A stretch of 18,875 nucleotides of DNA, taken from assembly GCF_003334335.1 (NCBI RefSeq), contig NZ_QOWQ01000056.1; one strand, written 5' to 3'. Position 1 is the stretch's first letter. Every line of letters begins with the position of its first letter. Positions 431-10,907 of the stretch are shown here, in pieces. The stretch is from Escherichia coli (GTDB lineage: Bacteria > Pseudomonadota > Gammaproteobacteria > Enterobacterales > Enterobacteriaceae). The translations under genes and the position numbers were made by a program. The notes beneath the pieces are model-generated. The model made no database searches, was not told where the DNA came from, and was given only the letters and a program-made list of their open reading frames with translations.

Positions 431-758
431 TCCTTTTCAAACCCTGTTGGATTTTGTCAAGACGGTACAGACACAGTAAAGCGCGCATCAACACCTGAAA
501 GGTACGATACAAACACAAGTTACAAACAATAAGAACGGAAGGACAATTAATCAGTGAGGAATAATAACTAAATTAACCAAAAGAATGTTACTGACAATAC
601 CACCAATACTTAAATAGCAATATATTAATTAATGTAAGAACAGATGCCCGGTAAGACATATACACAATACATCCACAAACACACTCTTTTCATTAAATAA
701 ATCACCTGATTAAACCATGAAAGTGTGATGTAAGTCAAAATTACTGACACAATCAATT

Positions 759-783
759 GATAATGATTATCTCTATCATTATC
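759..783. promoter_or_regulatory. Fur-box-like operator (iron-responsive) upstream of the 869-2125 operon
   Basis: gataatgattatctctatcattatc: the first 13 nt match the Fur consensus GATAATGATAATC with one mismatch and the last 9 nt (ATCATTATC) match the consensus 3' half exactly. It lies about 85 bp upstream of the ATG at 869. Confidence 0.45.
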
Positions 784-868
784 GTGAAATTCGAGAATGA
801 AAGGAGAAGTAGTCATTATAAGCCTTTTATAAATCGTCATCATCATAGTAAAGTAGAACACTTTTTAT

Positions 869-1339
869 ATGAGTTACTATATGAAAATATACTGGACAAG
901 AAAAAACATTCCTGAACTTTCAGCACTTCCACCTTCATTAAGAAAGAAAAATTTTACTGACGCATATAATGCTGCATCTTCCCATATCGAATACTGGATA
1001 GGTGCTGGCGTCTCATTTATCTCGATGATGATTTTATTCAAAGTATATGACTTTCTTTTACCCGCCCAAGATACTTTCCCGGGTGATATCATAAGAAGTT
1101 TATGTGTTGTGTGTCCATCCATATTAATCTGGTTTCAGTTTTCGGTATATGTCATGAGGAAATATTACAGACATATTCTGGAACGAGGTAAGGAAACCGA
1201 AACCATTTCAGAAAGGTTGATACGTGAGGCTGATACACGAGAATATGAACTATGGCGTCCGGCCCATCGCTTTTTCTCCATTATTTTTCTCATTATTCTA
1301 TTAGTTTGCATTCATTCACTGATAACAACTATAAAATAA
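869..1339 (+). CDS. Putative polytopic membrane protein (156 aa), function unknown; possible microcin immunity or accessory protein
   Basis: ATG start at 869 (second ATG at 881); hydrophobic segments (WIGAGVSFISMMILF, LCVVCPSILIWFQFSVYV, FFSIIFLIILLVCIHSLI); very AT-rich like neighbouring microcin genes; co-directional and 100 bp upstream of the CPBP gene. No obvious Shine-Dalgarno. Confidence 0.45.
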   Translation: MSYYMKIYWTRKNIPELSALPPSLRKKNFTDAYNAASSHIEYWIGAGVSFISMMILFKVYDFLLPAQDTFPGDIIRSLCVVCPSILIWFQFSVYVMRKYYRHILERGKETETISERLIREADTREYELWRPAHRFFSIIFLIILLVCIHSLITTIK

Positions 1340-1438
1340 AAGTTATGGCTGTTCTGATACAGGAAAATAAACGTTCATTCTATGGTTACCTCTTCCTGTT
1401 ATATAAAAGAATTTTAAACAACAAGTAAGGGAATATAA

Positions 1439-2125
1439 ATGGAAATAACAAAAAATAAAAATGCAACTATAAAAAAACAGTCATCAGCCGGCTGCTTTTC
1501 AATGTTTACTTTATCATTTTCCATTACCTTTATTCCTGCATTTCTTACAAACAGGCAGGAACTTATATCCAGGGGGCTTCTTGTTCCAGCATTATTTCTT
1601 GCTGAATTTCTAATTCTTGTTCCACTGTATTTTATTTTCTTCCGAAAAAGAGAAGGATTAGGAAGAGGTTCTTTTCGACTGGATGTTTTTTTTACTCTTT
1701 TCTCTTTAATAATGATTATTCAGTTATTTGTCCCTTATCTGCTGGCAGTGAGGAAAACGGAAGAATGGATGATCTCGCAAATGTCTTTTTCCGGGGCCAT
1801 TTTATGGATTAATATATTTTCTTCCGTACTTCTTGTTCCTGTATATGAAGAGATTGTATTTCGAGGGTGTCTTTTTAACTCTTTTAAATTCTGGTTTAAT
1901 GACAATATTTACATCTCTGCTATTGTAACATCAGTCATATTTTCTGCATTACATCTACAATATACTGACTTTCGTACATTTTTGATGCTCTTTCTGATAT
2001 CGTTAGTTCTTATCAGTGCAAAAATAAAGTCGAATGGCCTGTTAATGCCCATATTACTTCACATGGCGATGAATGCAGTCATAACAGGAATACAATATAC
2101 GTTACAATATCACATAACAGTCTGA
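1439..2125 (+). CDS. CPBP-family (CAAX protease / bacteriocin-processing, Abi PF02517-type) intramembrane metalloprotease, McmM/MceF-like
   Basis: 228 aa; ATG at 1439 preceded by taaggga (1426-1432). Family motifs in order: EExxxR (VYEEIVFRG), FxxxH (FSALH), HxxxN (HMAMN), within a multi-helix hydrophobic protein. Homologues (mceF, mcmM) are known in siderophore-microcin clusters. Confidence 0.8.
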   Translation: MEITKNKNATIKKQSSAGCFSMFTLSFSITFIPAFLTNRQELISRGLLVPALFLAEFLILVPLYFIFFRKREGLGRGSFRLDVFFTLFSLIMIIQLFVPYLLAVRKTEEWMISQMSFSGAILWINIFSSVLLVPVYEEIVFRGCLFNSFKFWFNDNIYISAIVTSVIFSALHLQYTDFRTFLMLFLISLVLISAKIKSNGLLMPILLHMAMNAVITGIQYTLQYHITV

Positions 2126-2377
2126 AATTGTTATTATGAGATATCTATAACACCTGAAGTTGGAAAAAGAAGCAAATAATTCCTTATAAGGAATCGTTTA
2201 CTAATATATTTAGATAATCTCATATTTGTTTATGATATACATCTGATTAAGATATAATGGATTATAAATTACTCAAAGGTGAACAAATATCTTCGCCTTT
2301 TCTCGTAGAAAGAGACTTGAAACTTATAATACATCTATATAAACGTGATTTAAATCACGGTTTGCAGTAAAAGCAAT

Positions 2378-2386
2378 TGGTATAAT
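2378..2386 (+). promoter_or_regulatory. Candidate extended -10 promoter element (TGgTATAAT) for the immunity-like/microcin-like pair
   Basis: tggtataat at 2378-2386 fits the TGnTATAAT extended -10 pattern; the nearest -35-like hexamer (ttgcag, 2362-2367) has a short 13-nt spacer. Sequence-only prediction. Confidence 0.25.
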
Positions 2387-2570
2387 TCATTGGTATTACT
2401 ATTATTTCATCTATTGCACGAACTATTTTACAACAATAAAAAAGATATACAAACAGCAAGAAGTAAAAATATTCGGATAAATAAAAATTTTTGCTACCTT
2501 GGTTTCTATAGTCTTTATTTCTAAGTTTTTCATAAGCACTCAAAGACTCATGTATAGGGACGGTTTAATA

Positions 2571-2735
2571 ATGAAACTATTTTTTTATTTCTCGTTGTTC
2601 TTTATAATACAACTTATAAATTCAGACTTAGACACATTAACCCTTTATCTTTTCATAAAGAAAATAATTCTTTCGTTACTTGCGAGTGTACTGTTTTTAT
2701 TTGTTTTATCTTTCTTTAATAAAAAGAGGAAATAA
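2571..2735 (+). CDS. Candidate microcin immunity protein (small two-helix hydrophobic peptide, about 54 aa)
   Basis: The track ORF 2499-2735 starts at TTG; in-frame ATGs occur at 2550 and 2571, and the 2571 one has aggga 11 nt upstream. Product MKLFFYFSLFFIIQLI...IILSLLASVLFLFVLSFF NKKRK has two hydrophobic helices and a basic tail. Stop TAA (2733-2735) is 1 nt before the microcin-like ATG, and the precursor's RBS lies inside its last codons. Confidence 0.4.
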   Translation: MKLFFYFSLFFIIQLINSDLDTLTLYLFIKKIILSLLASVLFLFVLSFFNKKRK

Positions 2736-2736
2736 C

Positions 2737-3060
2737 ATGAGAAATATAACAACCGATGAACTTGCTTTAATACATGGTGCAGGATTAGATAAAGATGCAT
2801 CCGTTGCAATAGGTACTGCGGCTGGTGGTTTTTTAGGTAAAGCAACAAAAATCCCTGGTGCGGATATAGCAGGAAGTGCAATTGGAGGATATATTGGAGG
2901 AGTTATTGCTGATGGTTCAAATAGGACAATAACAATACCATCAAACGGTATTAACTATAATCCGGGTATAGGACTTGGAAGTTTTAATCCAAACTACAAT
3001 GGAGGTTTATTAAACTCAGGATTTAACTCATCAACATCCTCTTCTAGTAGTGGAAGTTGA
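2737..3060 (+). CDS. Class IIb (siderophore-type) microcin-like precursor, 107 aa: 15-aa double-glycine-type leader plus 92-aa Gly/Ser-rich core
   Basis: ATG at 2737 with strong SD aagagga (2724-2730). Leader MRNITTDELALIHGA|G parallels MchB MREITESQLRYISGA|G and the MRxI(S/T)xxEL pattern. Core is cysteine-free, 20/92 Gly, and ends NSSTSSSSSGS like the Ser-rich tails of H47 and E492 that receive the salmochelin-type moiety. The track's 126-aa version starts at TTG (2680) with no RBS and overlaps the upstream ORF. Confidence 0.7.
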   Translation: MRNITTDELALIHGAGLDKDASVAIGTAAGGFLGKATKIPGADIAGSAIGGYIGGVIADGSNRTITIPSNGINYNPGIGLGSFNPNYNGGLLNSGFNSSTSSSSSGS

Positions 3061-9475: not shown

Positions 9476-9595
9476 TCAGGTCATCGATAAAGAATATTCC
9501 AGTAGAGTGGCGCTCATGATCAAAGATAACAGCAAAGTTGATGACAGTGCTGACCGACTGTCATTTACAGAAACCCTGTTTGTAGCAAATTCCAT
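9476..9595 (-). CDS. mchX: Small 39-aa ORF upstream of mchI (MchX-like regulatory peptide)
   Basis: Not in the track (below 60 aa); found by hand: ATG at 9595 to TGA at 9476-9478, translation MEFATNRVSVNDSRSALSSTLLLSLIMSATLLEYSLSMT (39 aa). Position and length match mchX of the H47 system; I cannot confirm the sequence from memory. Confidence 0.55.
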   Translation of the reverse strand: MEFATNRVSVNDSRSALSSTLLLSLIMSATLLEYSLSMT

Positions 9596-9626
9596 CTTAC
9601 CTGACCTCACCCAGACAAAGACAAAA

Positions 9627-9645
9627 GAGAATGATTGTTATTTAC
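9627..9645. promoter_or_regulatory. Weak Fur-box-like site in the mchX / mchS4 divergent promoter region
   Basis: gagaatgattgttatttac matches the 19-bp Fur consensus at 13/19; it sits about 30-50 bp upstream of the mchX start on the minus strand. Confidence 0.3.
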
Positions 9646-9818: not shown

Positions 9819-10064
9819 ATGAATTGTGATAATAATCACAGAAATGAAGAATTCATTGTTACCTTTGATAAAGGCAACAAGCAAGACAATTCAAGACGAA
9901 AACACGATAATTTTCCTATAGAGGTAGAATCCTCCGTAGAGCAGGAGACACACTGTATCACAAATAATAAGTCAGCTTCCGGTATAGTAACACATGGCTA
10001 TGATGCCGATTATATTTGTGGTTGTGGTGAAATTATGTGTCCTGGTTGCGGTCATGACCTATAA
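9819..10064 (+). CDS. mchS4: Small 81-aa protein with C-terminal Cys cluster (CxC-x4-CxxC), MchS4-like by position
   Basis: ATG at 9819 with SD gaggagg (9805-9811). C-terminus YICGCGEIMCPGCGHDL. Position between mchX and mchS3 matches the H47 island gene order as I recall it. Confidence 0.55.
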   Translation: MNCDNNHRNEEFIVTFDKGNKQDNSRRKHDNFPIEVESSVEQETHCITNNKSASGIVTHGYDADYICGCGEIMCPGCGHDL

Positions 10065-10670: not shown

Positions 10671-10907
10671 ATGAGAGAAATATCAGATCACATGCTTGAT
10701 TTCGTGAAAGGAGGGATGAATCTTAATGGATTACCTAGTTCTACTAATGTAATAGATCTACGAGGAAAAGATATGGGAACATATATTGATGCTAATGGAA
10801 CATGCTGGGCTCCGGGTACTCCATCCATCATCATGTATCCGGGGGGAAGTGGACCTTCTTATAGTATGAGTAGTTCCACATCCAGCGTAAACAGCGGCAC
10901 ATCATAA
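10671..10907 (+). CDS. mchS2: Second siderophore-microcin-type precursor (78 aa; leader MREISDHMLDFVKGG, Ser-rich tail), microcin I47-like
   Basis: ATG at 10671 with SD aggagg (10657-10662). 15-aa leader ending GG, 63-aa core with one Cys, C-terminal SMSSSTSSVNSGTS. Position next to mchS3 and mchS1 matches the H47 island. Confidence 0.8.
   Translation: MREISDHMLDFVKGGMNLNGLPSSTNVIDLRGKDMGTYIDANGTCWAPGTPSIIMYPGGSGPSYSMSSSTSSVNSGTS

Follow-up and report, generated by a model that had tools for sequence, protein, structure and literature searches.

An 18,875-nt stretch of Escherichia coli DNA (contig NZ_QOWQ01000056.1 of assembly GCF_003334335.1, hereafter the window; 100% identical to the E. 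coli N10 chromosome) raises the question of why a strong binding site for the iron-dependent repressor Fur should stand in front of two membrane-protein genes, mcmT and mcmM, at the border of a siderophore-microcin island, and what these two genes are for. Siderophore-microcins influence how gut Enterobacteriaceae compete with one another, and they are the basis of the probiotic effect of E. coli Nissle 1917. In the answer that we consider reasonably probable, though well short of certain, Fe-Fur represses the promoter-operator of an accessory mcmT-mcmM pair at the edge of a MccH47/M/I47/Ec W island; McmT would confer broad resistance, and McmM would act in export, processing or immunity. Both genes, the neighbouring microcin and the Fur peak discussed below are already in the literature. 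The operator itself has so far been published only as an undiscussed row in the supplement of a study based on chromatin immunoprecipitation and sequencing (ChIP-seq; PMC7157518), and no mention of the box was found in reviews of siderophore-microcin clusters, Patzer 2003 lying outside that search. The features at issue are the following:

759..783, no strand assigned: Fur operator, four tandem hexamers (GATAAT GATTAT CTCTAT CATTAT) and a final C; consensus 17/19 (- strand), hexamer array, ChIP-seq in strain CFT073.
757..785, + strand: predicted sigma-70 promoter of mcmT, TTGATA (757-762), 17-nt spacer, TATCGT (780-785); consensus scan 9/12.
881..1339, + strand: mcmT, 152 amino acids from ATG 881 or 156 from ATG 869; putative inner-membrane protein with three transmembrane (TM) segments and a conserved charged TM2-TM3 loop; 147/152 identity to CFT073, hydropathy.
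1340..1438, + strand: mcmT-mcmM spacer, 99 nt; AAGGGA precedes ATG 1439 as ribosome-binding site; predictions gave neither a terminator-like hairpin nor a promoter on the + strand.
1439..2125, + strand: mcmM, 228-residue CPBP/Rce1-like predicted intramembrane glutamic protease with EExxxR, FxxxH and HxxxN motifs; PF02517, E=2.4e-17.

The operator is, in the first place, an outstanding sequence match. The string gataatgattatctctatcattatc occurs exactly at 759-783, where a preliminary description of the window had placed it, and its near-consensus character is borne out: read on the + strand it agrees with the 19-bp E. coli Fur consensus GATAATGATAATCATTATC at 16 of 19 positions, and read on the - strand at 17 of 19, both at 759-777. 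These are the sole matches with three mismatches or fewer in the 18.9-kb window, against an expectation of 0.03, and two or more such matches arose in only one of 200 shuffles. The 7-1-7 Fur motif TGATAATNATTATCA is matched at 14 of 15 positions (758-772), and 759-782 divides without gaps into four NAT(A/T)AT hexamers, of which three are perfect. Their score of 18/20 makes this the top array in the window; 4 of 300 Markov simulations of window size equalled it, and none of 2000 simulations of the local intergenic region, which has 32% GC, did so. Whether a Fur box is defined by an uninterrupted run of three or more NAT(A/T)AT hexamers or by close agreement with GATAATGATAATCATTATC, 759-783 qualifies as one. 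Its 3' edge lies 85 nt from ATG 869, in agreement with the distance of about 85 bp estimated earlier, and 97 nt from ATG 881, and it overlaps both the putative -35 and the putative -10 element of the mcmT promoter, which is itself a weak prediction. A Fur box lying across -35 and -10 has the classical geometry of promoter occlusion.

The second line of evidence comes from uropathogenic strain CFT073, which carries the box base for base at NC_004431.1:1184914-1184938. Banerjee et al. 2020 list in their Table S5A (PMC7157518) a CFT073 Fur ChIP-seq peak that culminates at 1184948, has a height of 382 and is assigned to c1234/c1235; mapped onto the CFT073 chromosome, an orthologous strain and not the source of the window, this summit falls 10 bp from the box edge. 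Because the summit is so close to an identical sequence, Fur occupancy of this operator in vivo can be regarded as effectively demonstrated for CFT073, and the strong Fur operator of the preliminary description thereby gains experimental backing. By gene order (c1232 is mchF and c1237 is sfaC), c1234 would be mcmT and c1235 the divergent hypothetical gene.

A second Fur site in the island provides a useful comparison. It lies at 9627-9645 (- strand), matches the consensus at 14/19 positions, stands just upstream of a 44-residue mchX-like open reading frame (ORF; 9476-9610, - strand), and is identical in CFT073 (1176358-1176376), where it holds the published Fur summit 1176371, with a height of 625. 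As with the mchX/mceX Fur boxes described before (Patzer 2003, as cited in PMC7472721; Marcoleta 2018, PMC6071977), the mcmT box is a Fur operator within the same type of island, in which microcin functions are tied to iron limitation, and both sites of the window are Fur-occupied in vivo in CFT073. The differences are that the mcmT box matches the consensus much better (17/19 vs 14/19 in this window) and that it would control accessory genes rather than a precursor, immunity and maturation operon. The site with the weaker consensus nevertheless has the higher ChIP peak (625 vs 382).

As for the gene behind the operator, its product is 97% identical (147/152) to CFT073 WP_001528902 and corresponds to McmT, which the review literature describes for Nissle 1917 as a 156-residue protein with three TM helices, cloned from that strain (PMC6795089). 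The window protein fits this description, with 156 residues when read from ATG 869, three hydrophobic segments and a position upstream of mcmM in an H47/M island; the identification rests on the published Nissle description together with the CFT073 sequence, and not on a comparison with the Nissle sequences themselves. Since every McmT homolog begins MK[IL]YWT, the true start is probably ATG 881, giving 152 residues, and this is where the NCBI Prokaryotic Genome Annotation Pipeline (PGAP) starts the gene. McmT and McmM of E. coli Nissle 1917, CA46 and CFT073 share the sizes of the window proteins and their place beside mchF and a microcin cassette.

The 156-residue protein had been presented as belonging to no recognised family; it already has a name, as just seen, and it does lack a family match in Pfam, NCBIfam and PADLOC. 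An AlphaFold2 model of McmT is all-helical, with a predicted local confidence (pLDDT) of 71, and has no match in the PDB at E 0.001 or better, while a search of AFDB50 with this model returned uncharacterised Enterobacterales homologs only. A profile search of 1.84 billion representative sequences gave 78 relatives, all unannotated, with two-TM proteins of about 105 residues among them; Pfam scans of these relatives gave inconsistent noise and their genomic contexts were uninformative. Within this wider unannotated family (proteins P0038-P0107), the two-TM members, of about 105-112 residues, have the McmT N-terminus MKIYWTxKSIPELxGLP and share with McmT a Q..(M)R(P/K)(Y/H).R motif after TM2, to which McmT adds the charged loop and the third TM segment. 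On sequence grounds, McmT is thus the three-TM branch of an unannotated family that includes two-TM proteins of about 105 residues with a common MKIYWTxKSIPEL beginning. Klebsiella MceE is not among the McmT homologs found, the MceE sequence itself not having been fetched for comparison. Across E. coli alleles the ratio of nonsynonymous to synonymous substitution rates (dN/dS) of mcmT is 0.2-0.5, with a synonymous divergence of up to about 0.09.

The second gene follows after 99 nt, close to the gap of about 100 bp that had been noted, and neither a terminator hairpin nor a + strand promoter is predicted in between (1340-1438), an arrangement in which mcmT and mcmM would be co-transcribed. Its assignment to the CPBP family with intact motifs stood up when the Pfam search proposed for the 228-residue protein was run: alongside the PF02517 (Rce1-like) match, EEIVFR is found at residue 137, FSALH at 168 and HMAMN at 208, and a simple hydropathy scan gives six hydrophobic regions, so that profile, three motifs and polytopic membrane character all point to a CPBP protein, although its matches to the NCBIfam CPBP models are all below cut-offs. 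Published McmM has 228 residues and seven TM helices (PMC6795089). The window protein is identical at 214 of 220 aligned residues to the CFT073 CPBP protein encoded beside mcmA and mchF, and for this reason we identify it as McmM; orthology and its place beside the exporter, which is the same in UPEC957C and CFT073, make it a member of the McmM/MceF group. It differs from CFT073 McmM in the last eight residues, because the junction produced by the Ec W cassette swap falls in the 3' end of mcmM: in genomes of the MccM type the match to the 687-nt gene is confined to nt 1-660, the left junction lying inside the gene (2099-2125). MceF of Klebsiella pneumoniae MccE492 shares with McmM the CPBP fold, the three catalytic motifs and a gene next to the C39-ABC microcin exporter, and according to a thesis cited in PMC6795089 it lowers immunity; no substrate of McmM or MceF was reported in the literature found. 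McsI of microcin S is a CAAX-family immunity protein (PMC6795089), a CPBP type from which McmM differs in that no immunity role was found for it (PMC6795089).

The distribution of the pair among E. coli genomes shows how separable its two genes are. All seven E. coli loci compared (N10, O157:H7, MP1, UPEC957C, O104:H4, CFT073 and SK6988) have an identical box, while neighbouring bases vary; such invariance is consistent with constraint, short of proof at so low a divergence. The 59-mer 742-800 around the box is present in 1030 of 5426 complete E. coli genomes, and at a query coverage of at least 80% mcmT with its promoter is found in 1029 genomes vs 419 for mcmM. In four of the loci mcmM is inactivated: IS1 interrupts it in O157:H7, its ORF is split in O104:H4, SK6988 carries a frameshift and MP1 a truncated copy (decayed loci at L002 8800-9635, L005 6800-7485, L016 2187-2858 and L003 9032-9460), and in all four mcmT and the Fur box are intact. 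The mcmT locus of O157:H7 and MP1 has no microcin cluster at all, and in CFT073 and UPEC957C the same promoter and mcmT-mcmM pair stand beside an MccM cassette. An immunity gene dedicated to one microcin is expected to be adjacent to, and co-inherited with, that microcin gene, and mcmT is neither, being separated from ecwI-ecwA by mcmM and 445 nt. Like the class IIb immunity peptides MchI, McmI and EcWI, McmT is a small inner-membrane protein linked to protection from siderophore-microcins; unlike them, since they are encoded immediately beside one structural gene, co-expressed with it and specific to that microcin, mcmT stands apart behind a Fur-bound promoter of its own, reportedly protects from several microcins and survives where no microcin gene is left.

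Outside E. coli, the two genes are found separately. McmT homologs with 50-63% identity occur in Salmonella, Klebsiella and Raoultella as solitary genes, often beside an integrase, and intact homologs are present in at least five genera. Phylogenetic footprinting of the Fur box was tried with these homologs and abandoned, their lack of a box leaving them unable to confirm constraint; they indicate instead that the box is specific to the E. coli microcin island, where iron control would be a local acquisition and not a trait of the family. One Klebsiella homolog has a TonB, TonB-dependent receptor, ExbB and ExbD cluster about 1.3 kb upstream, and 590 bp downstream of another there is a gene for a 113-residue TonB_C protein whose N-terminus is lipobox-like (L009 1716-6722 and L013/L014 7046-7387, respectively); we take these TonB-type neighbours as a lead only. 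McmM-like CPBP proteins, with 54% identity, are encoded beside C39-ABC microcin exporters in K. pneumoniae, directly after the exporter, and in a Salmonella class IIb cluster with its own 96-residue Ser-rich microcin, in line with the association between CPBP proteins and microcins given in the preliminary description. The Salmonella enterica cluster (locus L021 6001-12696), in a plasmid-like context (CcdAB), combines the McmM-like CPBP and the 96-residue Gly/Ser-rich microcin, ending ...SSSSANDGS, with a C39-ABC exporter, an HlyD-like protein, an HlyC-like acyltransferase and an MchC-like gene. The McmM-like CPBP loci examined contain mcmT neither in Klebsiella nor in Salmonella; upstream of these genes no Fur box was found in Salmonella, and 14/19 was the best match in Klebsiella. 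The K. pneumoniae CPBP gene differs from mcmM in the same way: it follows the exporter, and neither mcmT nor a strong Fur box accompanies it. These loci link the CPBP gene to microcin production rather than to mcmT.

The immediate neighbour of the pair had been announced as a new microcin, and it was in fact published in 2025 as Ec W, with an immunity peptide of its own, EcWI, and a location between mchF and mcmM (PMC12999681). Two further features belong here:

2344..2359, no strand assigned: perfect palindrome CGTGATTTAAATCACG, about 220 nt past mcmM; perhaps a weak terminator separating mcmTM from the Ec W cassette; found on the - strand only in the scan, and as a hairpin in the + strand RNA fold.
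2571..3060, + strand: ecwI (54 amino acids, 2571-2735) and ecwA (107 amino acids, 2737-3060), Ec W immunity and microcin, outside the Fur unit; assigned by lengths, 1-nt spacing and position.

The gene lengths, the 1-nt spacing and the location between mchF and mcmM agree with those published for Ec W (PMC12999681). In the window the Ec W cassette (2126-3060) substitutes for the MccM cassette, and ecwI-ecwA have the orientation of mcmT-mcmM, while CFT073 mcmA lies on the opposite strand. Within 2126-2570 the best match to the Fur consensus has eight mismatches, and several promoter-like sites are predicted. The window as a whole is a chromosomal MccH47/I47 siderophore-microcin island with mchF, mchE, mchD, mchC, mchB, mchI, mchS3, an MccI47-like gene, an esterase and a glycosyltransferase. 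A 78-residue MccI47-like precursor, MREISDHMLDFVKGG...SSVNSGTS, is encoded directly after mchS3 (10671-10907, + strand) and has no PGAP annotation in N10. Between mchX/mchI and mchS3 an 81-residue ORF annotated as hypothetical (9819-10064, + strand), with a Cys-rich C-terminus CGCGEIMCPGCGHDL, could be an mchS4-type gene; kinship of McmT with this ORF was considered and rejected, no relation being found. The divergent genes upstream of the operator have no recognisable domains, and beyond the window, on its upstream side (locus L001 1-14952), the island borders directly on a two-partner-secretion/CdiA-like toxin locus that IS421 interrupts and that includes a YezG-family immunity gene.

Put together, these elements suggest the following mechanism. 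When iron is plentiful, Fe-Fur would bind the 24-25 bp array of four hexamers over the -35 and -10 of mcmT and block RNA polymerase; when iron is scarce, Fur would depart, mcmT would be transcribed and mcmM would probably follow by read-through. The same scarcity turns on mchXIB-CDEF and the catecholate receptors, which are the entry route of siderophore-microcins, and McmT would then most likely be a broad accessory resistance factor against microcins that depend on these receptors, active when exposure is greatest. A value that did not depend on any one microcin would explain the survival of mcmT in non-producers. McmM most likely acts in microcin export, processing or immunity. The proposal of an iron-regulated unit possibly serving the adjacent microcin is thus retained as to the strong Fur operator and the CPBP protein, McmM. 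Its dedication to Ec W is given up, since the module stands beside MccM in CFT073 and UPEC957C and beside no microcin cluster in O157:H7 and MP1.

Several observations weigh against this reading and are best considered with the alternatives that they nourish. In the CFT073 study the direct regulon comprises operons that combine a ChIP peak with an RNA level altered more than 2-fold in the fur mutant, under a single, anaerobic condition; 349 Fur peaks resolve into 57 directly regulated operons, and c1234/c1235 appear among the ChIP peaks only, in neither the direct regulon nor the other tables, while mchBCDEF, in the same island, is about 11-fold de-repressed (PMC7157518). Either the mcmT promoter is silent or unchanged anaerobically, or the gene escaped the analysis, and other literature yielded no expression data for c1233/c1234 or mcmT. 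Because no Fur-dependent RNA change is listed, Fur repression and iron-dependent transcription of mcmT are a well-motivated proposal rather than an observation. The promoter is, moreover, a predicted one with a 9/12 consensus match, in a region whose promoter-like sites are not enriched over shuffles, the genome counts given above are inflated by clonal oversampling, for example of O157:H7, and the homologs of Salmonella, Klebsiella and Raoultella have no Fur box (best at least six mismatches) and no CPBP neighbour. Fur might then bind without appreciable control of mcmT, from an AT-rich promoter that is silent (for example through H-NS) or that needs another activator, and the many bound but unregulated CFT073 sites, the 32% GC of the intergenic region and the weak promoter prediction speak for this possibility, to which we give a clearly minor but real share of the probability. 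It is countered by a box whose 17/19 match and four hexamers far exceed the mchX site (14/19), which does regulate, and which sits exactly on the predicted -35/-10 and is invariant in all loci compared, and by the single growth condition of the CFT073 study. The functional side has its own weak points: no evidence was found that mcmM is needed for immunity (PMC6795089), and the resistance phenotype of McmT, which covers H47, M and partly E492 and V, comes from an unpublished thesis cited in the same review (PMC6795089). That phenotype could be confounded if the clone carried the strong Fur box on a multicopy plasmid: in a reading of our own, the DNA itself would titrate Fur, enterobactin would be de-repressed, and catecholates would compete at FepA, Cir and Fiu with siderophore-microcins and MccV. 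Fur titration assays are positive for the mceX and mceE boxes, whose identity to the consensus is 74% and 68% (PMC6071977), and the mcmT box is stronger than these. H47, M, E492 and V have different inner-membrane targets and a common uptake through catecholate receptors and TonB, and the reported spectrum is thus one of microcins that share this route. Titration would, however, de-repress the receptors as well, which should increase sensitivity, and mcmT is intact and under purifying selection (dN/dS 0.2-0.5) at every locus compared, non-producers included; this selection, with intact homologs in at least five genera, argues that the McmT protein does something. We therefore judge titration improbable as the source of the phenotype.

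The remaining alternatives concern what the operator serves. It might serve an operon dedicated to Ec W, for its immunity, export or processing, with Fur control reaching ecwI-ecwA by read-through: mcmT, mcmM, ecwI and ecwA are all on the + strand here, and between mcmM and ecwI there is no Fur-like site and only the weak hairpin at 2344-2359. Yet in CFT073 and UPEC957C a 97%-identical module lies next to an MccM cassette of opposite orientation, the module exists without any microcin cluster in O157:H7 and MP1, O104:H4 retains ecwA although its mcmM is split, and several promoter-like sites are predicted in 2126-2570. In addition, EcWI was the immunity peptide required for growth during Ec W expression, in a heterologous system into which only ecwI and ecwA had been cloned (PMC12999681), and a dedicated unit seems to us quite unlikely, slightly more so than titration. 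Least probable of all, and by a good distance, is that the operator mainly serves the divergent gene for a 170-residue hypothetical protein (start about 423, - strand; c1235 in CFT073). The ChIP peak was assigned to both flanking genes; the box, however, lies about 336 bp from the start of this gene vs 85-97 bp from mcmT and overlaps a + strand promoter prediction, c1235 is likewise outside the direct regulon, and its protein has no recognisable domain.

Under the preferred reading, in which Fe-Fur controls an accessory mcmT-mcmM pair, the island would have a second Fur-wired node besides mchX. A bolder version, which we put forward as doubtful but worth stating, makes McmT a microcin-agnostic resistance protein, induced by iron starvation, that dampens the TonB/ExbBD-dependent entry of catecholate Trojan-horse microcins, also in non-producers such as O157:H7 and the mouse commensal MP1. 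If this were true, McmT would act exactly when Fur de-repression makes the cell most permeable to Trojan-horse microcins, and it would be the first characterised member of a family of small membrane proteins with the N-terminus MKIYWTxKSIPEL. About a fifth of the complete E. coli genomes in a clonally biased collection have the gene, among them enterohaemorrhagic strains making no microcin, and, if mcmT is indeed a Fur-controlled broad resistance gene, its carriage would help to predict which pathogens resist microcin-based probiotics or engineered therapies.

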